Below, in pieces: positions 3,302-14,164 of a DNA stretch of 64,000 bases. The notes beneath the pieces are model-generated. The model was not told where the DNA came from, did no database searches, and saw nothing but the letters and a program-made list of their open reading frames with translations. The position numbers and the translations under genes are program-made. Position 1 is the first letter of the stretch. Every line of letters starts with the position of its first letter. The DNA comes from Planctomycetota bacterium (lineage in GTDB: Bacteria; Planctomycetota; UBA8108; SXIK01): assembly GCA_965223265.1 (NCBI GenBank), contig OZ244999.1, forward strand, positions 6,208,001-6,272,000, given 5' to 3'.

Positions 3302-3654
3302 CGATCTGGGCATAGACCCGGGGCGAGCACCCCCGCAGGCGTGCATAGTGCCCTCAGCCATGGCGCAGTGGTGCCACAGCAAGCCGCAGACAAGAGCTGC
3401 GGAGGACGCCGGGTGCTCACGCCCGAACAGCCACCTGCCAGACGCGGCGCGCCCACGCGATTTGTTGCCCCAGCGCCGACACCGTGCGAGAGAAATTGAC
3501 TAGAGTTAGCAGCGTCAGTATACTCGCAGCGGGAAACTTCTCCGGAAGAAGCACCGGAGAGATGGGTATTCCCGCCGATGGCCTCTCCCCGGCACCCGAA
3601 TCTATCCTTCCGCCTCCTTCGAGACACAACTCGCCAGTTCGTGTGGAGAAATCT

Positions 3655-5937
3655 ATGCTAGCAGCCGATTTATGGCGCTTGTTTCGTCTTGCACTCGTGT
3701 TGATCGCCGTCACCTCAGCACAGATCGTCCTGACAGAGTCCGCCTTCGCTCAGTGCTCGTGCTCGTCGGACGCCGCATTGGGTACTTGTGCGATCCGTGT
3801 ACTGCAACCAGGCGACAACAGTGCACTCGGATCCGACGCCTACCCAGATCAGTTCCCCGGTCCCGGAACGGTAGTTTCAGGCGATAGCGGCGACTTTCTC
3901 TACGTGGCTGATTTCTTCAGCGGTCGAGCCTACGTTTTCGAGTACGTCGTTTCGCCCATCGCCGCGGTGAAAATCGTCGATCGGGTCGTTCCCTCGCCGG
4001 CCGGTACCGCGCAGCTCAGTGGTCTGACTGCCGTGGGCGAGACGCTGATCTGGGCTGCCGGCAACAGTCTCTGGAGCACGAACTCCGAGGGCGGTGAGGT
4101 AGCCGAATTGGGCACGATCAATCTGACAGCAGTCGCCGATGCCATTTCAGCGGCGACGGGCCAGACGTTGAGCGCGGGGGCGCTCGGCGGCATCGTTTAC
4201 CATCCCTCGCGTGAGTCGCTGTGGGCTGTCGATATCGTCAACGACCTTTACTTCGAAGTTCAGCTCGACGGCCAACTCGTTCTCGACGCCGGCGACCGCC
4301 CGAACTTTTTCTTCAACCCGATGCGCGCGCCGCTTGGCGGAGCGTACGGCAACGATCTGACCTATGTGGCCAACGAGCAAGGCGAGTTTTTCGACGTTCT
4401 CGCTGGCCCCCTGAGTGCGGGTCGCCCGAATCATGTGTTTCGCCTGCATGCCGTCGCCGGCGCGGACTTCGAGATCGGCGACGAGACTGGCGTGCGCTAC
4501 GCGCTGGACGATCAGCTCGAGTCGCCCGAATTCCCAACGGGAATCGTCCACTGGCAAGATTCCTGCTCCAGCGGCCAGGGAAGCGAATTTGTTTTCGACC
4601 TCAGTCTCTCCGGCGCATCGCCGAGGCTGATCGAGGTAGCGGGTGATACTCCACAGTTCGGCACCCCTGCAGACTTTCAGTGCACACCGATCTCGGACAC
4701 CTCCGCAGAACTGACTTGGCGAAAAGATCTGCCGTACGAGACGCTGACGATCGTCCGGAGGAACCTCTCGACAGGAGTCGAGACCGAGATCCTATCGACA
4801 ACGTTTGAGGAAGACTCAGGCAGTACGCTCGATGAGGGAATTCCGCCCGGCACCTACGAATATATCGCGACCACCAGCACGGAGACCGCTGACGTCCCCG
4901 AACTGCGCTGCCGCCTAAACATCGGGCGCGGTCGAAGCGTCAACTTGGGCGCGGCCGGCGACAACCCATACGGCGTGACCCTGGCTGACGGCGAAATCGT
5001 CGTCGCCGACTTGAGCGGCACGGCGTCGATTCTCGACTCCGGCCTGCAGGTGCAATCGACCCTTCCGAGTCCGTTCACTGAGTCAGGCACAACGACCGGC
5101 ATCGCCTATCGACCCGCCAACCAGCGCCTCTTCTGGATGCAAGATACCGGTAGCGCCTACTTGCTTGCTGCCACCAACATGGCAGGCGAAGTGCAGGGCG
5201 ACGTGGCTCTGATTGAGAGCCCGCTCAACTTTGTCCGTGGAATGCAGCTCGGAGACGTCGCGTACGATGGCGCCAACGACTATTTTTGGACGGTCGATCG
5301 TCTGACGTCGACCGTTTTTCCGATCTCGCCGTCGGGAACCATCCCGACGCCGTTCGAAACGCAGCAGCTTTCGCTGGGCGAAGGCACCATCCTTGGTGGC
5401 GGCGTCTCGGTGTTTGAGTCGTCGCCAACCTCGGTGACCCTCGATCTCACAGCTGGCACGGTCGATCGCGGTTTCGCGTCGGACTTCGTGCGCGTCGAGT
5501 TCAACCTAGACGACCTCACGTTCACGGAGCGCTTTCGCTTCGATCTTACGGCTTCGTTCGACGCAGCCAGCCCCGGCAGCATCGCTGTGAATGGTGACAC
5601 AGCCTTCGTGACGGCGCTCGATACCGGCGCGGTCTATGAGCTTGCCGTGAGTTCCCGCGATCTACCGTTCTTCCGACGCGGCGACGTCAACGACGACGAA
5701 GCCATCAATATCTCCGATCCGAGCGCGCTCCTTCTGCACCTCTTCCGCAGCGCTCCAGAGCCGACTTGCCCGGCAGCCGCGGACGCCAACCGCGACGACG
5801 CCCTGCAGCTCGCGGACGCGGTTTTCCTCTTCAACTATCTCTTCGTCAGCGGCGAGGCTCCGCCGGCTCCGTTCCCCAGCTGTGGGCCGGATCCAGACAC
5901 TGCACTGGATTGTTCCGCTTCGTCCTGTTCGCCCTGA
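3655..5937 (+). CDS. Large secreted beta-propeller/Fn3-like protein with C-terminal dockerin-like domain
   Basis: ATG 3655 after GGAGA; signal peptide ending AFA-Q; acidic propeller-like repeats (LYVADF, LWAVD, FWTVD). Tail: FRRGDVNDDEAINISDP...AADANRDDALQLADA...PPAPFPSCGPD. Confidence 0.75.
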   Translation: MLAADLWRLFRLALVLIAVTSAQIVLTESAFAQCSCSSDAALGTCAIRVLQPGDNSALGSDAYPDQFPGPGTVVSGDSGDFLYVADFFSGRAYVFEYVVSPIAAVKIVDRVVPSPAGTAQLSGLTAVGETLIWAAGNSLWSTNSEGGEVAELGTINLTAVADAISAATGQTLSAGALGGIVYHPSRESLWAVDIVNDLYFEVQLDGQLVLDAGDRPNFFFNPMRAPLGGAYGNDLTYVANEQGEFFDVLAGPLSAGRPNHVFRLHAVAGADFEIGDETGVRYALDDQLESPEFPTGIVHWQDSCSSGQGSEFVFDLSLSGASPRLIEVAGDTPQFGTPADFQCTPISDTSAELTWRKDLPYETLTIVRRNLSTGVETEILSTTFEEDSGSTLDEGIPPGTYEYIATTSTETADVPELRCRLNIGRGRSVNLGAAGDNPYGVTLADGEIVVADLSGTASILDSGLQVQSTLPSPFTESGTTTGIAYRPANQRLFWMQDTGSAYLLAATNMAGEVQGDVALIESPLNFVRGMQLGDVAYDGANDYFWTVDRLTSTVFPISPSGTIPTPFETQQLSLGEGTILGGGVSVFESSPTSVTLDLTAGTVDRGFASDFVRVEFNLDDLTFTERFRFDLTASFDAASPGSIAVNGDTAFVTALDTGAVYELAVSSRDLPFFRRGDVNDDEAINISDPSALLLHLFRSAPEPTCPAAADANRDDALQLADAVFLFNYLFVSGEAPPAPFPSCGPDPDTALDCSASSCSP

Positions 5938-7735: not shown

Positions 7736-8089
7736 CTAGCGCGAAGCGGTTGACAGCTCGATCACCCGATCCCAGTCGTCGGGCTGCAGCGGATCGTCAA
7801 GCGCCAGCCGGTTGCGGCGCTCGATCCCGCAGCCTTCGCAGACGTGGATGACGAACCACGTCTGCCGCTCCTGATCGATCCGAACCGGCCTCATCAGCCC
7901 TTGGCAGTGCGCAGCACGGTCGCCGGGTACGACGTCAACGTGTCGAGACCAGAGGCAGGCTGGACAGTGGCTGCGAAAGCCGCGACGCAGCGGCTTCACC
8001 TCGACGCCGCAGGCGAGACAAGCGAAGGGATCGTTCCCGCGACCGAGAAAGTTTCGCCGTTCGCCGCTGCGGCGCTCACTTTGGCTCAC
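7736..8089 (-). CDS. RNHCP-domain protein
   Basis: FACLACG...FRSHCPACLWSRHVD..PGDRA..CQGLM..HVCEGCG. Confidence 0.85.
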   Translation of the reverse strand: MSQSERRSGERRNFLGRGNDPFACLACGVEVKPLRRGFRSHCPACLWSRHVDVVPGDRAAHCQGLMRPVRIDQERQTWFVIHVCEGCGIERRNRLALDDPLQPDDWDRVIELSTASR

Positions 8090-8354
8090 GTCGAACTCCC
8101 TGCCGGATCTCCCGCGTTTCCGCACCAGACCATTCCCGCCAGCCCGAACCCCAGGCCAACAGCACAACTATGGGCAAACAAATGACTTAACACCATCGAG
8201 AAGCGACCACAAAAAGCGCTGTGATGACGATTTTCCTTCAGAGCCGTCCGGGCGTCGAGGTACGACCTTACAGAAGGCGACGGCGACAGCTCCGCGCCGA
8301 CTCGCTCAGATGCTAAAATAACCGCTTCCCCGCCGATCGAAAACCGAACAGCGC

Positions 8355-8927
8355 ATGAACTCCCCCGACGCCCAAACGCGAGCCAGAAAGTCCGAAGACT
8401 GCGAGCTCGTCCATCGAACCCGCCGCGGCGAGACGGCTGCCTTCGAGGCTCTCATCGCCAAATACCAACGCGCTGTCTTCAACATCGCGCTCTACAAGAG
8501 TAAGAATCATTTCGACGCCGAAGATCTAGTCCAAGACATCTTTCTCGCCGCGTACCGCGCCCTCGAGACGCTTCGTTCGCCGGAGAACTTTTCGAGCTGG
8601 CTGTTCGGGATCGCATACAACCGCTGCCACAAATGGTTCCAGCGCGAGCGAACGAAAGTCGTCAAGTTTGAAGTGCTGCGGCAGCGCGTTGCACGCGAGA
8701 CACGCCTACAGCAGCGTGCGAACTCCAGTGAGGACGTGCCGCTGTCCGAGTCACTGGCGCGCGTGCCGACCGAGATCCGCACGGTGCTTCGTTTTAAATA
8801 CCTCGAAGGATTGAGCTACCAAGAAATCGAAGAGCGAATGGGAATCAATGCGCACCGGATCGACTATCTGATTCGCAAAGGCAAACAAATGCTCCGTGAG
8901 CGCATGACGAAGAGCGAAGAACGATGA
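8355..8927 (+). CDS. ECF sigma-70 factor
   Basis: DAEDLVQDIFL, FSSWLFGIAYN (region 2) and EGLSYQEI (region 4). ATGA overlap with the anti-sigma gene. Confidence 0.92.
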   Translation: MNSPDAQTRARKSEDCELVHRTRRGETAAFEALIAKYQRAVFNIALYKSKNHFDAEDLVQDIFLAAYRALETLRSPENFSSWLFGIAYNRCHKWFQRERTKVVKFEVLRQRVARETRLQQRANSSEDVPLSESLARVPTEIRTVLRFKYLEGLSYQEIEERMGINAHRIDYLIRKGKQMLRERMTKSEER

Positions 8928-9940
8928 CGAAGCGAAGCGACGACAACCTCAGTAAGCCGAACTTCTCCTTGGACGACTCCGCATCGGGCAAGGCAGATCA
9001 CCTTGACCCGAGCGACGATGCGTTCGACTCGTCACTGGTCGATCTGACCGCCCGCCGCTGCGATGCGCTGCGCTCTCACTATCATCACTACGTCGAGAAT
9101 GAGCTGGACCCGCTGCGAGTCCGGATGGTGGATGCCCACCTCGGAGCTTGCGACAAATGTCGCGAGGAAGTGGAGTACCTCCAGCTCGAGAAGCTGTGGG
9201 TTATGGAGACCGTGCTCGACGCGCCAGAGCTCTCGGACCGCCTGACGGAGAAGATCGTTGCGGCTGTTCATGCAGAACGCCGCGACCTCAACTCACGGTG
9301 GTTTTTGCGCGTCAGCGCGAGCATTGCGGCTGTAGCGCTTGCCGGCGTGCTCGCCGTGTTCGCCGGAGGCGCCTCGATCGAGACGCCCGAAATCGTCTCC
9401 GAGAAGCAGATACACCTGCCGCCCGGAACCATCCACGTACGCTCTGCCGGTAAAAGTCGCGACAGAAACGAGCTCCCGCGAGCTCGGCTCGTCCATTACA
9501 ACGCGTCATCGGGCATCTCGACGACGCATGGCTACCCTTGGACACTTCCGGCACCGCGCCGCCATGCAGCTCGCTGCGACTACCCGGCCTCGGCGTACCG
9601 CGTCGCTGTGCGGGTCAAATCGCCGCGCGACCGTATCCGCAAGCTCACTCCGCTCGCCTCGCGCGCAGACGTCGTCGTCTTCGTGCGGATGCCTCGGCGA
9701 GGACGTATCAGCTTGAGGGATACGGTCAACGTCGCTCTACGTTTCGCTCGCGGCACTCCTGCGGTCGAACGCGATCTCGAGTCGTGCGAGCCAGACCCGA
9801 ACGCGGACGGCAAACTGGATATCGATGACATCGCATACGGTCTCCAGGTACTATACGGGGCTCAAACGCCGGAGGCCGTCGCCTTGGGTGACGAGTCATC
9901 GCAGGAGAACGAGTGCGATGCCGCGTGCGCTCGTGCGTGA
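8924..9940 (+). CDS. Zinc-finger (HxxxCxxC) transmembrane anti-sigma factor with C-terminal dockerin/EF-hand-like motif
   Basis: HLGACDKC ZAS motif; one TM segment (SIAAVALAGVLAVFAGG); tail DPNADGKLDIDDIAYGLQVLYG. Confidence 0.82.
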   Translation: MTKRSDDNLSKPNFSLDDSASGKADHLDPSDDAFDSSLVDLTARRCDALRSHYHHYVENELDPLRVRMVDAHLGACDKCREEVEYLQLEKLWVMETVLDAPELSDRLTEKIVAAVHAERRDLNSRWFLRVSASIAAVALAGVLAVFAGGASIETPEIVSEKQIHLPPGTIHVRSAGKSRDRNELPRARLVHYNASSGISTTHGYPWTLPAPRRHAARCDYPASAYRVAVRVKSPRDRIRKLTPLASRADVVVFVRMPRRGRISLRDTVNVALRFARGTPAVERDLESCEPDPNADGKLDIDDIAYGLQVLYGAQTPEAVALGDESSQENECDAACARA

Positions 9941-10075
9941 CGCTCCAATGCGTCCATCAACCATTTGAGGATGCCTGGAGGTCGAACTCAGCGGCGACGC
10001 GACTTATCATTCGGCCCTTACGAGTTCGATTCAAACAAGATGAACGTGTACCTATCGTTCGGAGGATCTTTGAAC

Positions 10076-11542
10076 GTGACTTTCCCTGAAAAACATCGAC
10101 AAGAACGAAGCCCTCGTCGCCACGCTCGTTCTTTCGTCGTGACCGCGCTGCTTTTCGGCTGCGCGCTGTTGCTAGTGAGCCAGCCGCCGACCGTGAGCTC
10201 GGCGAGCGAAGGCGAAAGCACGAAGCGATTCTTCTTGGCATACAGCGTCAACAACGCAGGTTTCACCGACACCTGTGGCTGACCAAAGAAAAAGATCAAG
10301 CTGGGCAGTTTGCCCAGACGCATGACTTACCTCCAGCAGCTTCGTGGCTTCGGTGTCCCAACACTCTTGGTTGACGGTGGCAACGTTTTCTATCGTACGC
10401 TCACGAAGAAAGCACCCGATCGAGGCAAAGAGCTGACGCTGTGGAACCACGCTCGCGTCATTCTCAATGCGTACAACCTACTCGGCTATCAGGCGGTCGC
10501 CGTCGGCCCGGAGGACCTCCAGCTTGGTTTGAACCGCCTGCAGGAACTGGCCAACAAGGCACACTTTCCGTTTGTCTGCGCAAACTTGGTGGACAAGAAG
10601 ACGAAACAACCGTATTTCGAGCCCTATACGATCGTGAACGTCAACGGTTTGCGCGTCGGCGTCTATGGCATGCTGCAACAGCGGCTCAATCCAACGATCC
10701 GCGAGCGGGCCATTCCGGACGGCGAAATCCTACCGCCGATCGAAACGACGAAGCGAATTGTTGCGGAGATGAAGGCGAAGTGTGACGCCATCATCGGTCT
10801 TTCCCACCTGCACGAAGAGACCAACTCCAAAATCCTCGAGGAAGTCCCAGAGATTACCGCACTCGTCGATCCGGCGTCGCGCCATGGGTTCAAGACCGTC
10901 TGGATCCACTCTGAGGAGGACTACAGCCGGGACTTCGGCGGACGTCCGCGCCTGCGCATCGATGGGCAAGGCTCGCGGATCGGCATCGCTGATCTCACCG
11001 TGTCAAAGTCGAGCAAGAAACCTTCGAGTTATACGGGATACCATGTACCGATCGAGCCGCACATCATGCGGCACCCGGTGATGACTGAATTGCTGACATT
11101 CGTGCGTGCTGGTCGCGACTACCCTCTTGATCGCAAGCGCGATGCCCATTCAATGTATCCGTTCGACGACGCACTCGGAGCAGCGACGTGCGGCTCATGC
11201 CATCCCGAACAACTCGAGTTCTGGAAGTCGACGTCCCACGCCTCAAATTTCCACACCCTTGAGGCGACCGGCGACCAAGCCAACTCCGATTGCGTTGGCT
11301 GCCATTCGCTTGGCTATGGCGTCACATTCGTGAACGCCGCCGACGCGAAGAATTTCAAGGAAGTGCAGTGCGAAAACTGCCACGGTATTGTACGGGGCCA
11401 CGCCGAGGACCCGGAGAAGCACCGATTCGGGGAGGTCGGCGAACGCACGTGCGTCGGCTGTCACAACAAGGATTACACACAGAAAGACTTCGACTACGAG
11501 GACGCGCGTCCGCGAGCGTCCTGCCCGACTTCGGCCAAGTAG
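10076..11542 (+). CDS. Predicted selenoprotein: secreted UshA/5'-nucleotidase-like domain (CGU motif, Sec at TGA 10280-10282) fused to tetraheme cytochrome c
   Basis: ORFs 9965-10282 and 10310-11542 are in frame and separated only by the TGA. Readthrough gives NNAGFTDTCG-U-PKKKIKLGSLPRR, vs paralog NNSGYIDVCG-C-KHKQVRQGSLTRR. GGAGGA RBS at 10061-10066 precedes GTG 10076. Signal peptide present; 4 CxxCH (CGSCH, CVGCH, CENCH, CVGCH). Confidence 0.88.
10301..10317 (+). promoter_or_regulatory. Candidate bacterial SECIS hairpin
   Basis: CTGGGCA-GTT-TGCCCAG perfect stem starting 18 nt after the UGA, with G in the apical loop about 25 nt downstream. This fits the general bacterial SECIS model. No equivalent stem in the Cys paralog. 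Confidence 0.75.
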
Positions 11543-11575
11543 TCGCTGCGAACCCGCGTCAAGGAGTCAAGGACC

Positions 11576-13072
11576 ATGCGAAAATCAGCAGTCGTCGTGA
11601 CGCTTTTCGGCTTGACGGTTGTGCTGTCAGGAAGCGGTCAAGTCGAGGCAGAAAAACCAGCGCGATTCACCCTCGTCTACAACGTCAACAACTCCGGATA
11701 CATCGATGTCTGCGGCTGCAAGCACAAGCAGGTCCGCCAGGGAAGTCTGACGCGACGTTCGAGTTTCCTCAAACAGCTCCACGCGACGGGACGAAACCTA
11801 CTCCTCCTCGATGGCGGCAGCTCGCTCTTCAAGGTCGGCGAACTGATCAAGAAAGAACAGCGCGACGAAGCGATCCGCAAGGCTCAGCTCATCGTCGAAG
11901 CCTACAATCGGATGGGATACCATGCCATGGCTGTGGGCCCAGCCGATCTTTACGCCGGACTGGATGAAACTCTCGCCCTCAGGAAGAAGGCAAAATTCAA
12001 ATTCCTATCCGCGAACGCCTACGACAAGAACACGGGCAAGCTCCTCTTCGAGCCGCATGCTGTATTCGAAGTCGGCGGCGCGAGAGTCGGCGTGATCGGC
12101 CTCACGCTGCAGACGATTTCAAAACCGTTCTTACGGCGCATCGGCTCGCGATTTGAAGTGCGTGACGCAGAGACCGCTCTTAGGGAGTCTATCGAAGCCC
12201 TCAAACCAAAGACGGACTCGCTGATCGTCTTGTGCCACGAACGAGAAGAGGTCAGTAAGAAGTTCGCTGCAGCATTCCCGGAAATCCACATGTTGGTCGA
12301 TCCTTACATTCAGTACGGCAACCACCACACTTGGATCAAGAAACACGAGTGGCTCGACCGAGTCGAGGAGACTGTCTTCCTGCGCAGTGACGGACAAGGC
12401 GCTCGACTCGGCGTCGTTGACGTCGAGCTCAAACATGGTAGCCGTCCGCTCGTCTCACGCATCGACCTGGAAGATCTCGCTGCCGCGGTCGCCGCTGCCG
12501 ATGCCAATGTCACCGACGCCGACAAGGAGAAGCTGATTTCCTGGCGTGCGTTCAATCCCTTCGATTTTCAGCGCGTCTCGCTCGAGCCGCATCACCTCTC
12601 CGACCCCGACATCGATCGTCTCGTCGACGAATGGAAAAAGAATGTCGACCCGAGCAAAGTAGCGCGGCTAGAGGCAGAGCTGCCGCGGCGCGCTGAGTAC
12701 GCGACCGCAGACAAGTGCAAGGGCTGCCACGAAACGCAATACGACTGGTGGAAAAAGACGCGTCATGCGACAGCCTTCGCCACGCTGCAGCGCACAGGCG
12801 ATCATCAGCGCTTCGACTGTATTGGCTGCCACACGTTGGGTTACGGCGAAGCATTTCTCAACACGACCGCGGTCGGCGAATTCGCAGATGTGCAGTGTGA
12901 GTCGTGTCACGGCACGAACCCGAAACATCTCGAGAGCCCGGCGACCCATAGCTACCGCAAGATCACTAAGCACGATTGCCTTGTCTGTCACAACAAAGAG
13001 CAAACGCTAAAAGACTTTGCGTTCGCAGCGGCGCGGCGGAGAATCGCCTGTCCGAGCTCGAAGAAGTCATAA
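11576..13072 (+). CDS. Secreted UshA-like domain (CGC motif) + tetraheme cytochrome c; Cys paralog of the upstream selenoprotein
   Basis: Signal peptide; VCGCKH, LLLDGGS, AMAVGPAD, FLSAN, DGQGARLG; 4 CxxCH (CKGCH, CIGCH, CESCH, CLVCH). Confidence 0.88.
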   Translation: MRKSAVVVTLFGLTVVLSGSGQVEAEKPARFTLVYNVNNSGYIDVCGCKHKQVRQGSLTRRSSFLKQLHATGRNLLLLDGGSSLFKVGELIKKEQRDEAIRKAQLIVEAYNRMGYHAMAVGPADLYAGLDETLALRKKAKFKFLSANAYDKNTGKLLFEPHAVFEVGGARVGVIGLTLQTISKPFLRRIGSRFEVRDAETALRESIEALKPKTDSLIVLCHEREEVSKKFAAAFPEIHMLVDPYIQYGNHHTWIKKHEWLDRVEETVFLRSDGQGARLGVVDVELKHGSRPLVSRIDLEDLAAAVAAADANVTDADKEKLISWRAFNPFDFQRVSLEPHHLSDPDIDRLVDEWKKNVDPSKVARLEAELPRRAEYATADKCKGCHETQYDWWKKTRHATAFATLQRTGDHQRFDCIGCHTLGYGEAFLNTTAVGEFADVQCESCHGTNPKHLESPATHSYRKITKHDCLVCHNKEQTLKDFAFAAARRRIACPSSKKS

Positions 13073-13099: not shown

Positions 13100-14164
13100 A
13101 TGAACCAAAAAGGGCCCCGTGCGGTGGTCATCGGGGGAGGCGTGATCGGCCTGGCCGTCGCACGTGAGCTCGAAGCGTTGGAGTTCAACGTCACTGTGCT
13201 CGAACGGCGACAGTTCGGGCGTGAGGCTTCGTATGCGGCGGCCGGCATGCTCGCGCCGGAACTCGAATTCACGCCCGACGACGAACTCTTCACGATGGCT
13301 TCGGAGTCGCTCGCGCTCTACCCCGACTTCGCGGCGACGCTCGAGGCCGAAGTTTCGCAAATCGTCGACCTACGACTGAGTGGAATCGTTCGACCTCTCA
13401 TGGGGTCGCCCGCGGCTGGAGAGGTAGGAGAGTCGGAGGCAACGCATTCCTACCCAAGCGTCGAACGACTGGAAGGCAATGCGCTGCGCCGATTGGAACC
13501 GGAGTTGGCCAACGAATTCACGACGGCTGAGCTTTTTCATGGCCACGGCAGTGTCGACAACCGCGCCCTCGTCGACGCGCTTGCTCGGTCGTGCCAGTGC
13601 CGCGGCGTCGAGCTGCGCGCCGCTACGACCGCTACTGAAGTCACGAGTAAAAACGATCGCGTCACGGGTGTCATCACCGACGGCGGCCCGATCGCGGCGG
13701 ACATGGTGGTCAACTGCGCCGGCGCATGGGCCAGCGATGTTGCTGTCGATGGAGCGGCCGTCGCAACGCATCCGGTCAAAGGTCAGATGTTGCTCGTTCG
13801 CTGCCCGCAGCCGGTCCTCGAACACGTGATCTACTCGCACTTGGTCTACCTCGTGCCTCGTAGTGACGGCCGAGTCGTGGTCGGCACAACGGTCGAGGAA
13901 CGCGGTTACAATAAAGACGTGGAAGCGTGGGCACTCGAGCGACTTCTGAAGGGTGCTCTGACGGTGTGCCCGGCCCTCAAGGAATCGCGCTTCGTCGAAG
14001 CTTGGGCTGGGCTGCGACCTCAAATCGCTCAAAAGAGTCCGCAAATCTGTGCCGCCGGTCCGCTGGGCTACTTTCTCGCTTGTGGGCACTACCGAAACGG
14101 CGTACTGCTGGCGCCGATCACAGCGAAACGAGTTGCCGCATTAGTGCGGCAAGCCAGCGATTGA
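13100..14164 (+). CDS. thiO: Glycine oxidase / FAD-dependent D-amino acid oxidase family
   Basis: VIGGGVIG, ASYAAAGMLAP, PVKGQ, WAGLRP, GHYRNGVLLAP. Confidence 0.85.
   Translation: MNQKGPRAVVIGGGVIGLAVARELEALEFNVTVLERRQFGREASYAAAGMLAPELEFTPDDELFTMASESLALYPDFAATLEAEVSQIVDLRLSGIVRPLMGSPAAGEVGESEATHSYPSVERLEGNALRRLEPELANEFTTAELFHGHGSVDNRALVDALARSCQCRGVELRAATTATEVTSKNDRVTGVITDGGPIAADMVVNCAGAWASDVAVDGAAVATHPVKGQMLLVRCPQPVLEHVIYSHLVYLVPRSDGRVVVGTTVEERGYNKDVEAWALERLLKGALTVCPALKESRFVEAWAGLRPQIAQKSPQICAAGPLGYFLACGHYRNGVLLAPITAKRVAALVRQASD

Follow-up and report, generated by a model that had tools for sequence, protein, structure and literature searches.

The segment between positions 10076 and 11542 of the window (the whole 64,000-nucleotide stretch of DNA analysed here) raises the question of whether an in-frame TGA ends one gene or is read through as selenocysteine (Sec, U) within a longer one. 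Translation with table 11 gives two ORFs, 9965-10282 and 10310-11542. When TGA is translated as U, the frame runs from GTG 10076 to TAG 11540-11542 with the TGA in frame at 10280-10282, and U69 stands in the context ...YSVNNAGFTDTCG-U-PKKKIKLGSLPRR. The adjacent paralog (11576-13072) reads ...YNVNNSGYIDVCG-C-KHKQVRQGSLTRR, its Cys occupying the column aligned to U69. Translation and alignment therefore confirm the starting point of the original prediction, in which UGA recoding joined the two ORFs. Overall, these positions are best explained as one gene, very likely encoding a secreted, two-domain selenoprotein of the curated family NF041198.

Gene structure and domain order

The start of the Sec-form gene is GTG 10076, with GGAGGA 9 nt upstream, or alternatively the in-frame ATG 10040. 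Residues 1-43 comprise a basic n-region, the hydrophobic FVVTALLFGCALLLV and then SSA|SEG, and are probably a signal peptide, as judged from these residues. As had been proposed, this hydrophobic leader lies upstream of the TGA and the CxxCH motifs (C372, C406, C432 and C459) lie downstream of it. Coordinates are collected in Table 1.

Table 1. Features of the Sec-form gene and its neighbours in the window
Feature	Position	Strand	Details
ECF-type sigma factor gene	8355..8927	+	190 aa; Pfam Sigma70_r2 and Sigma70_r4_2
Anti-sigma factor gene, zf-HC2	8924..9940	+	338 aa; Pfam zf-HC2
Selenoprotein gene (Sec form)	10076..11542	+	488 aa with U69; translation with TGA=U
Probable signal peptide	10076..10204	+	residues 1-43, read from sequence
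5'-nucleotidase/SoxB-like metallophosphoesterase-fold domain	10217..11119	+	residues 48-348; most di-metal ligands replaced
Cys67-Gly68-Sec69 motif (TGT GGC TGA)	10274..10282	+	TGA = 10280-10282
SECIS-like hairpin CUGGGCA-GUU-UGCCCAG	10301..10317	+	starts 18 nt after UGA
Tetraheme cytochrome c554-like domain	11165..11539	+	residues 364-488; Pfam PF13435
CxxCH motifs	11189-11203, 11291-11305, 11369-11383, 11450-11464	+	within tetraheme domain
Cys483, candidate distal heme ligand	11522..11524	+	C/H column
Tandem Cys paralog (CGC for CGU)	11576..13072	+	498 aa, four CxxCH, own signal peptide
FAD-dependent oxidoreductase (DAO family) gene	13100..14164	+	Pfam DAO 223 bits

In cytochrome c maturation, CxxCH motifs receive heme only following export. 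This bears directly on the alternative that the TGA is a true stop and that the locus makes two products, a 68-residue secreted peptide and a protein of 406-410 aa starting from M83 or an upstream TTG. Exactly such ORFs are what table 11 yields, and the 406-aa form is the one on the database record. The downstream protein would nevertheless carry four CxxCH motifs without a signal peptide, and would begin after the first beta-strand and the CxU loop of what is modelled as one domain (pLDDT 94). Together with the complete Sec machinery of the genome and the synonymous-site freeze described below for the hairpin of Sec forms, this makes two separate products very improbable.

Sec machinery and conservation of the TGA codon

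The search proposed in the original prediction recovered every component that it had named. The genes selA (548.1 bits), selB (324.1 bits) and selD (308.8 bits) each score above their curated cut-offs, and a tRNA-Sec is found at 70.3 bits against an Rfam cut-off of 47, called by ARAGORN as tRNA-SeC with anticodon tca. An alternative genetic code was also considered and was ruled out, as no stop codon in the window is more frequent than TGA. It serves as an ordinary stop here, ending 5 of 9 neighbouring genes and 24 of 39 long ORFs.

In 35 of the 41 genomes of the window's class there is a homolog whose frame contains a single TGA, and the 16 best orthologs share 42-55% identity. The TGA stands at the same codon in all 20 inspected loci, which come from different genomes, at protein identities down to 36%; in each of them it is preceded by [TP]CG and followed by PK[KR]KIKLGSL, an agreement of codon and motif far above chance. 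The 22 N-terminal residues preceding the TGA are also conserved in frame among homologs. Of the 56 rows of the family alignment that reach this motif, all have Cys or Sec at column 69 and 54 have Cys at column 67. Homologs thus keep TGA at this codon and paralogs have Cys, which is the outcome that the homolog comparison had been proposed to look for.

A recent nonsense mutation, or a base-call error for TGC or TGT, would also place an in-frame stop opposite the paralog's Cys, and public gene calls do take this TGA as a stop. A pseudogene or a sequencing error is hardly credible for a codon that recurs at the same place in all 20 loci and in single-TGA homologs of most related genomes, behind residues still conserved in frame. 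As to sequence accuracy, the contigs of four runs show 0 differences across 9900-11700, and no TGC or TGT variant among them; all of these contigs belong to a single sample that may be the source of the assembly, and they give no independent check on it. In sum, selenocysteine is very probably what the in-frame TGA specifies, and the product would be a secreted redox protein with four hemes.

A SECIS-like hairpin downstream of the UGA

Bacterial SECIS elements are stem-loops that lie a short way 3' of the UGA and carry G/U in their apical loop. A hairpin of this kind is found at 10301-10317, with a 7-bp stem and a 3-nt loop (GUU or GUC) that lies 25 nt past the UGA. It is conserved in the 20 loci, and since it encodes the conserved L-G-S-L-P/S-R this conservation is partly at the protein level. 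Stem positions pair in 97.0% of 133 cells, a share that falls to 22.6-50.4% if the partner strand is displaced by 1-3 columns. In a shuffle control, the observed value was reached in 0 of 500 shuffles, a significance that is overstated as the compared sequences are kin. Covariation is seen at pair 24-36, the sole pair changing on both sides, which is GC in 15 rows, CG in 3 and AU in 1.

The codons give a second control. For the Gly-Ser of the upper stem and loop, Sec forms use GGC in 19 of 20 and AGT in 20 of 20 loci, whereas in those genomes the Cys paralogs spread the same two residues over four Gly codons (6/5/5/3) and three Ser codons (5/11/3). Judged from these codon counts, the synonymous-site freeze at the hairpin is specific to Sec forms. 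With the covariation, it gives substance to the 3' stem-loop that had been named as a hallmark of selenocysteine.

Folding energy was also tried as a SECIS test, but the controls on pairing at specific positions and on synonymous codons were preferred to it. The stability of the 72-nt stretch starting at 10274 does not exceed that of shuffled sequences (z -0.64; at least as stable in 54 of 200 shuffles), and the Cys paralogs, at -12.4 to -24.4 kcal/mol, are as stable as the Sec forms, at -7.3 to -19.5, so that energy by itself is no SECIS marker here. Rfam gave no family match in 9800-11800 at E<=1.

Sec decoding at UGA 10280-10282 is strongly supported, and the recoding reading fits the Sec genes, the conserved TGA, the Cys paralogs and the SECIS-like hairpin alike. 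SelB and tRNA-Sec would decode this codon as selenocysteine, guided by the hairpin, and the gene and its recoding signals suggest that the Sec-form protein contains selenium.

Membership in a known selenoprotein family

The read-through protein is a member of the curated NF041198, "UshA-like (seleno)protein" ('UshA_like_PCGU'). Its score is marginal, 276.2 bits against a cut-off of 275 and only 1.2 above it; the Cys paralog reaches 299.8 bits. The matched profile segments lie at its two ends (positions 9-236 and 403-519 of 519), and the C-terminal 170 aa alone match positions 403-519 with 101.6 bits. The CxU/CxC that NF041198 places in the loop after the first beta-strand is present as C67-G68-U69. 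A CxU at the family position, a heme domain within the profile and the existence of Cys-form paralogs are common to the family and the window protein. Two differences were noted: the window clade has TCGU, and PCGU stands in the model name; and in this clade, unlike NF041198 in general, the Sec form never occurs without a Cys partner gene, both of them following an ECF sigma/anti-sigma pair.

The available text of the 2008 survey by Zhang and Gladyshev (PMC2398784) counts 'COG0737 UshA-like, CxU' among its selenoprotein families, and reviews of 2022 and 2026 also list the family with its CxU motif. The predicted Sec-plus-tetraheme architecture is real but is not a new fusion, because it is the standard architecture of the curated family. 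Being catalogued since 2008 and included with its heme domain in NCBI naming models, the family gives the locus little weight as a selenoprotein discovery. Another curated family, NF049981 (UshA-like (seleno)protein family 2), has a CxxU motif and a profile of 262 positions; the N-terminal domain is related to it distantly, with 32.6 bits where the cut-off is 140.

The passages seen of the literature on UshA-like selenoproteins mention them in tables or in one sentence, and in those passages the heme domain, the lost metal ligands and a function are all absent. The main text of a paper on Planctomycetes selenoproteins (PMC4807772), as far as available, names neither UshA nor a nucleotidase, and its S9 candidate table may list the family. 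The literature search returned no paper joining selenocysteine, nucleotidase and multiheme, and the papers found describe no experiment on selenium, heme or activity for any family member. What this analysis adds is the loss of metal ligands, the Cys/His heme column and the ancient Sec/Cys pair with ECF control.

The nucleotidase-fold domain and its lost metal site

An AlphaFold2 model of the protein (pLDDT 94.0, pTM 0.92) aligns in VIA-align with phosphoesterase folds over residues 4-305 and with cytochrome c554 over residues 321-445. For the N-terminal domain, VIA-align to 5'-nucleotidases and SoxB gives Z of 31.1-32.6 (SoxB, 31.4) with rmsd 2.3-2.8 over 274-282 residues, and profile comparisons to this fold have E-values of 1.6e-37 and 6.9e-23. 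Among the matches listed by Foldseek were solely 5'-nucleotidase-type chains, and no solved chain listed by the structure searches spans both domains. Besides the N-terminal fold and a periplasmic location, the window protein shares GG(L/S)xRR after the first loop with E. coli UshA, CD73 5'-nucleotidases and Thermus SoxB.

The active site was compared through profile alignments to solved 5'-nucleotidases. Where nucleotidases have N-D-x-H the profile has n-v-a-G, G-N-H-E-F aligns with G-e-r-D-L (GPEDL in the window protein), and G-D aligns with G-d (GN in the window protein). The DxH, GD, GNHE and GH metal and catalytic motifs are replaced in the Sec form, and the sole metal motif residue retained is the motif-IV His (H244), found in 49 of 97 rows. 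In the window clade, 4-5 of the six canonical ligands are non-ligating (N/A/G, N103, P145 and D265-P266). The di-metal ligands of the nucleotidase fold are thus mostly lost, a point that this analysis adds to what was predicted. The CxU/CxC motif is located in the loop after the first beta-strand, the normal site of the first metal motif (DxH).

Strong similarity of fold and profile might suggest a working UshA-type nucleotidase or SoxB-type thiosulfohydrolase that carries Sec and a cytochrome tail incidentally. Such an enzyme is scarcely to be expected here: the protein scores 61.9 against a cut-off of 600 for UshA (NF007109) and 36.6 against 550 for SoxB (TIGR04486), far under both, and belongs to neither family. 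Furthermore, UshA, CD73 and SoxB have di-metal motifs and a C-terminal substrate-binding domain, whereas in the window protein the motifs are replaced and a heme domain stands in for the substrate-binding one.

Sec ligates metals in known enzymes, for instance formate dehydrogenase and [NiFeSe] hydrogenase. With this precedent, the protein could be a real selenoprotein in which the old di-metal site has been taken over by a metal or metalloid (for example Fe, Ni, Cu, Mo/W or Se itself) bound to Cys-X-Sec; the hemes would feed this centre, and the Cys-X-Sec pair would not cycle through a selenenylsulfide. The CxU does lie within the loop of the fold's first metal-binding motif, and further ligands could come from D100 (85 of 97 rows), D147 (91 of 97), N170 (95 of 97) and H244, which is partly retained. 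A metal site is nonetheless improbable, given the non-ligating residues at most canonical positions in the clade; in addition, no metal-insertion genes were seen beside the Sec/Cys pair, and selenoprotein surveys, in the passages available, group CxU and CxC spacing with redox motifs.

The tetraheme domain

Residues of the C-terminal domain match PF13435 at 47.3 bits against a gathering threshold of 20.8, and align in VIA-align with cytochrome c554 of Nitrosomonas europaea (1bvb; PF13435) with Z 10.3 and rmsd 2.6 over 124 residues at 28% identity. The four CxxCH motifs follow in the same order and the fold is the same. Membership in cytochrome c554 applies to the domain only, as the score for the Nitrosomonas equivalog NF043010 is 23, where 400 is required. 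The Nitrosomonas protein is a free electron carrier, whereas the window version is fused to an enzyme-like fold.

The only invariant His residues besides those of the four CxxCH motifs are H388 and H442 (97 of 97 rows). At column 483, Cys is found in 54 and His in 24 of the 97 rows, and the position is Cys in every complete member of the window's clade. This C-terminal Cys/His column looks like a heme ligand, and it suggests a His/Cys heme in the window clade, unlike in c554. The four hemes of the domain would be c-type, one of them probably His/Cys-ligated via Cys483, a role assigned from the pattern of the column.

The tandem Cys paralog and its neighbourhood

In the tree, Sec and Cys forms are sister clades with mirrored branching, with support of 87 for the Sec group, 96 for the Cys clade and 99 for both together. 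The ECF sigma gene lies two genes upstream of the Sec-form gene; the anti-sigma gene overlaps it by ATGA and itself ends with a TGA stop. Seven related loci were scanned for the same arrangement. A sigma factor gene adjoins the pair in 5 of them (L073, L075, L076, L077 and L078) and a zf-HC2 protein in 6 (L072-L077), the corresponding ORF of L078 having no Pfam match. An ECF sigma factor, a zf-HC2 anti-sigma factor or both are accordingly found upstream of the pair in the window and in 7 of 7 scanned loci. The Sec/Cys tandem pair behind an ECF sigma/anti-sigma pair is ancient. It is probable that the upstream pair controls expression and that the Sec form works with its tandem Cys paralog.

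The DAO gene directly downstream of the paralog in the window is also present in L072 and L078. The neighbourhoods of more distant Cys-type members (L079-L081) contain no ECF pair and no functional clue; hybrid histidine kinases and a D-Ala-D-Ala ligase were observed in these surroundings, and a TPR tail on the family protein itself.

Proposed function and the parallel with MccSep

The original prediction had also pointed to a multiheme selenoprotein of Geobacter. Such an analogue exists in MccSep / ExtKL (GSU2937-2936) of Geobacter sulfurreducens, a pentaheme selenoprotein polysulfide reductase (PMC13510729), but it belongs to another family, NF040886, for which the window protein gives no match at E<=0.01. 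According to the available part of that report, the active-site heme of MccSep is ligated by Cys, its Sec is catalytic and essential, and its homologs occur mainly in Desulfobacterota and Nitrospirota (PMC13510729). As far as the same text goes, both proteins are periplasmic multiheme c-type cytochromes with one Sec, a UGA and a downstream stem-loop; both are split by gene callers and have Cys-type relatives. They differ in that MccSep has five hemes and no 5'-nucleotidase-like domain, whereas the window protein has four CxxCH motifs together with such a domain, and in that the Sec of MccSep lies inside the cytochrome and that of the window protein in a separate domain.

The most likely function of the window protein would be that of a periplasmic, heme-wired Cys-X-Sec oxidoreductase, a reading which the parallel with MccSep backs by analogy. 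In the mature protein, the first domain would present Cys67-Gly-Sec69 in the DxH loop of a 5'-nucleotidase/SoxB fold deprived of most di-metal ligands, and the second would be the cytochrome c554-like carrier of the four hemes. As a tentative mechanism, somewhat short of probable, we infer that the protein is no phosphoesterase and that its hemes exchange electrons with the Cys-X-Sec centre. The direction of transfer could be to or from that redox centre, and this heme-to-Sec path is conjectural. The substrate of the centre may be an oxidised sulfur, selenium or peroxide species, small and probably anionic.

Taken together, the loss of metal ligands, a CxU/CxC that never varies, four hemes of which one is probably His/Cys-ligated, the tandem arrangement and the ECF control give this catalogued but uncharacterised family a testable enzyme hypothesis, which is timely as a first multiheme selenoenzyme, MccSep, has just been shown to reduce polysulfide. 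Carried to its full extent, the hypothesis is speculative and rather doubtful: the UshA-like CxU family might represent an undescribed type of periplasmic selenoenzyme, in which a metal-free nucleotidase fold performs Cys-X-Sec catalysis with a tetraheme wire containing a His/Cys-ligated (Cys483) heme, and which in the window's class forms an obligate, ECF-switched Sec/Cys eight-heme pair reducing oxidised sulfur, selenium or peroxide species of the envelope. If true, it would be a second, independently evolved solution to MccSep chemistry.

Consequences for annotation

The splitting by standard annotation that had been foreseen is visible in public records. The window protein is recorded as a 406-aa product starting at M83, and all 16 nearest homologs (45-56% identity) are 345-418 aa long, the named ones as 'hypothetical protein'. 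One of these homolog records gives its source as 'Planctomycetes bacterium', which lends the 'Planctomycetota-like' label of the original prediction indirect support. As public gene calls truncate the family, the selenoproteomes of the phylum are under-counted, and the window locus provides a clean worked example of this truncation by gene callers.

Probable Selenocysteine Decoding of the In-Frame TGA

The original prediction read an in-frame TGA as a selenocysteine codon, and both the observation and the interpretation proved correct. The TGA lies inside one continuous frame from GTG to TAG. Sequence inspection placed GGAGGA 9 nt upstream of the GTG and found an alternative in-frame ATG at 10040. 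With TGA translated as U, the read-through gene (Sec form) encodes 488 aa with selenocysteine as U69 in the motif TCG-U-PKKKIKLGSLPRR. As predicted, this translation has a leader (a basic and then a hydrophobic stretch) upstream of the TGA and four CxxCH motifs downstream, at C372, C406, C432 and C459, and the adjacent paralog (Cys form) carries CGC in the column aligned with CGU.

Coordinates of the selenoprotein gene, its hairpin, its paralog and remoter homologs
Feature	Location	Strand	Remarks
Selenoprotein gene (Sec form)	10076-11542	+	GTG 10076 to TAG 11540-11542, TGA 10280-10282 in frame
Hairpin CUGGGCA-GUU-UGCCCAG	10301-10317	+	7-bp stem, 3-nt loop, 18 nt past UGA
Tandem Cys paralog	11576-13072	+	498 aa, CGC aligned with CGU
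Second homolog, family f5	G022:C11:60714-61994		
Second homolog, family f5	G024:C144:15627-16904		
Second homolog, family f5	G028:C961:161-1423		

The host genome, a single contig of 9.18 Mb, contains all four decoding components that the prediction presupposes: tRNA-Sec (selC; 70.3 bits against a cut-off of 47, anticodon tca by ARAGORN), selB (324.1 bits), selA (548.1) and selD (308.8), each above its curated cut-off. The selD gene, at locus L019:244-2547 (G000:C1, about 3459482-3461785), encodes a 767-aa fusion without in-frame stop: its N-terminal part is a pyridine nucleotide-disulphide oxidoreductase domain (Pyr_redox_2, residues 11-321), and the AIRS/AIRS_C selenophosphate synthetase part follows.

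TGA is also a normal terminator, being the stop codon of 24 of the window's 39 long ORFs and of 5 of 9 neighbouring genes, and translation table 11 splits the Sec-form frame into ORFs at 9965-10282 and 10310-11542. That this TGA is a true stop yielding two products is nevertheless highly improbable. When the read-through protein was searched against 41 genomes of the window's class, 40 gave a match and in 35 a matching sequence contained exactly one in-frame TGA; the best 16 orthologs share 42-55% identity with the query. The TGA held the same codon in 20/20 loci inspected ([TP]CG-TGA-PK[KR]KIKLGSL), and the 22 residues preceding it were conserved in frame. A sequencing error or recent nonsense mutation is therefore ruled out, and the reading as pseudogene or error keeps almost no probability, the smallest of all those weighed. 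Over 9900-11700 the contigs of four runs also match the window without a difference, and no TGC or TGT replaces the TGA there; they come from one sample, from which the assembly itself may have been made. Computationally, the Sec form is a single gene bearing selenocysteine recoding signals.

The expected damage by standard annotation is evident in protein collections, where the entry for the window's product is a 406-aa fragment beginning at M83 and all 16 nearest homologs (45-56% identity) measure 345-418 aa, the named ones being called 'hypothetical protein'. In 41 of the 97 aligned rows the gene call is short at the N terminus and lacks the CxU column, and many representative public-metagenome homologs (P0007, P0009, P0033, P0038, P0046, P0048, P0049 and others) start at query residues 76-100, just past the Sec codon. 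Such starts are as expected if a TGA stands at the same codon there too, which suggests that Sec forms may be common well beyond the inspected loci.

A Constrained Stem-Loop After the UGA

The predicted 3' stem-loop was recovered, with equal UGA-to-hairpin spacing in 20/20 loci. In bacterial SECIS elements the loop lies 16-37 nt past the UGA and contains a G, a consensus that this hairpin fits. In an alignment whose rows are kin, 97.0% of 133 cells paired, vs 22.6-50.4% when the 3' partners were slid by 1-3 columns. Pair 24-36 was G-C in 15 rows, C-G in 3 and A-U in 1, and pair 26-34 was G-C in 11 and G-U in 8; double changes occurred in one pair only. Since conserved residues are encoded within the stem, the same genomes' tandem Cys paralogs served as control. 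Gly-Ser at the hairpin codons is common to both forms; Sec forms use GGC (19/20) and AGT (20/20), whereas Cys forms use four codons for Gly (6/5/5/3) and three for Ser (5/11/3). This codon freeze, limited to UGA-bearing copies, means that the hairpin is constrained at the RNA level and only in them. Folding energy after the UGA did not discriminate from shuffles (z -0.64), the Cys paralogs folded as strongly as the Sec forms, and no Rfam family matched the hairpin region. In family f6, two Cys paralogs (L039, L041) themselves carry a strong hairpin, of GUUCGUCAGGGUU-CUUU-GACCCGACGAGC type, soon after TGC and within the 60 nt that start at the Cys codon; chance, a former-SECIS relic or something else could account for it.

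Family, Fold and the Lost Di-Metal Site

The Sec form belongs to a known, curated and biochemically uncharacterised selenoprotein family, the NCBIfam equivalog NF041198 ('UshA-like (seleno)protein', 519 positions), scoring 276.2 bits, just over the cut-off of 275; the Cys paralog scores 299.8. By themselves the C-terminal 170 aa align to positions 403-519 of this profile with 101.6 bits, a score that no other cytochrome family comes near, so the curated family already includes the tetraheme domain. The predicted secreted Sec-tetraheme fusion thus stands as an architecture but not as a novelty, being usual in NF041198. The 2008 Global Ocean Sampling selenoproteome lists a 'COG0737, UshA-like, CxU' family (PMC2398784), and review tables name an 'UshA-like protein' in 2022 (PMC9312934) and, with NF041198, in 2026 (PMC13188914). 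The main-text literature searched yielded no functional study of an UshA-like selenoprotein and no printed mention of the heme domain; none joining selenocysteine, nucleotidase and multiheme was found. The family's chemistry is the question worth pursuing.

Cytochrome_C554 was the sole Pfam domain above threshold. Modelled with AlphaFold2 on a 97-row alignment (pLDDT 94.0, pTM 0.92), the mature protein resembled 5'-nucleotidases and SoxB over model residues 5-305 (Z 31.1-32.6, rmsd 2.3-2.8 over 274-282 residues) and cytochrome c554 over 321-445 (Z 10.3, rmsd 2.6 over 124 residues, 28% identity); searches with the model found no solved chain spanning both domains. A working nucleotidase or SoxB-type hydrolase, as the fold might imply, is very unlikely, with scores of 61.9 against a cut-off of 600 for UshA and 36.6 against 550 for SoxB. 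Alignments with solved 5'-nucleotidases show that the phosphoesterase motifs have been lost: N-D-x-H corresponds to n-v-a-G, G-D to G-d (G-N103 in the Sec form), G-N-H-E-F to G-e-r-D-L (GPEDL in the Sec form) and the motif-V G-H to D-P in the Sec form. The sole motif residue kept is the motif-IV His (H244), in 49/97 rows. Family membership, both folds and loss of the di-metal site are shown by computation. The CxC/CxU pair occupies the loop of the first metal motif and is conserved, with Cys/Sec at column 69 in 56/56 covering rows and Cys at column 67 in 54/56. The pair might itself bind a metal there, which we consider unlikely.

Hemes and a Proposed Mechanism

Besides the four CxxCH motifs, only H388 and H442 are invariant in the heme domain (97/97 rows). 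A C-terminal column, each time two residues past a hydrophobic one, holds Cys in 54 rows and His in 24, the alternation that a distal heme ligand would show; Cys throughout the window's clade suggests a His/Cys-ligated heme there. That gives a candidate distal ligand to three of the four hemes; the remaining one may be five-coordinate or take its ligand from elsewhere.

The best functional analogue is the Geobacter protein that the original prediction alluded to, MccSep/ExtKL, described as a polysulfide reductase with five hemes, a Cys that ligates heme and a catalytic Sec (PMC13510729). It belongs to a different family, since its model NF040886 gave no match to the Sec form. We tentatively favour a redox mechanism, as a whole possible rather than probable. 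The protein would be exported via the Sec pathway and then fitted with its four c-type hemes, which would exchange electrons with a selenenylsulfide-type Cys67/Sec69 centre at the former metal site, facing the domain cleft like the di-metal site of 5'-nucleotidases. K71-K73, K75, R81 and R82 make the surroundings of this centre strongly basic, which suggests an anionic substrate; by analogy with MccSep and with sulfur enzymes that have His/Cys hemes, a peroxide or an oxidised species of sulfur or selenium is most plausible.

Gene Context and Distribution

Within the class, the Cys form comes directly after the Sec form in families f1, f2, f4 and f6. In a tree of 63 rows, with eight near-duplicate loci left out, Sec forms (support 87) and tandem Cys forms (96) were sisters, joined at 99 with mirrored branching, which points to a single old duplication after which neither copy was lost. 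The retained Cys paralog may point to a two-subunit system. Upstream of the pair, a zf-HC2 anti-sigma gene was found in the window and 6/7 related loci scanned, an ECF sigma gene in the window and 5/7, and at least one of them in 7/7; this ECF pair could place the system in an envelope-stress regulon. A DAO-family FAD oxidoreductase follows in the window and two further loci (f1, f2), and a beta-eliminating lyase lies upstream of the sigma gene in f4 and f6.

In a phylum sample of 301 genomes, NF041198 matched in 104 at E<=1e-30; among the matches listed (29 others are unlisted), all TGA-bearing ones were in the window's class. Genomes of f5 hold a second, remoter homolog (27% identity full-length) with exactly one in-frame TGA, which may represent a further Sec-bearing subfamily. 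Family f28 has NF041198-type Cys forms of 768-810 aa with a C-terminal TPR extension (L080:5982-8285(-), L081:6467-8896(-)), near a hybrid histidine kinase/response regulator gene rather than an ECF pair.

Just upstream of the window's sigma/anti-sigma genes lies an RNHCP-domain protein (7736-8167, minus strand), of which the closest relative has a longer, 401-aa form in the same neighbourhood (L072:12959-14161). Dockerin type I was matched weakly (23 bits) in an 817-aa protein of the window (3484-5937, plus strand) and at 33.6 bits in the periplasmic part of one relative's anti-sigma factor (L075:6927-7748).
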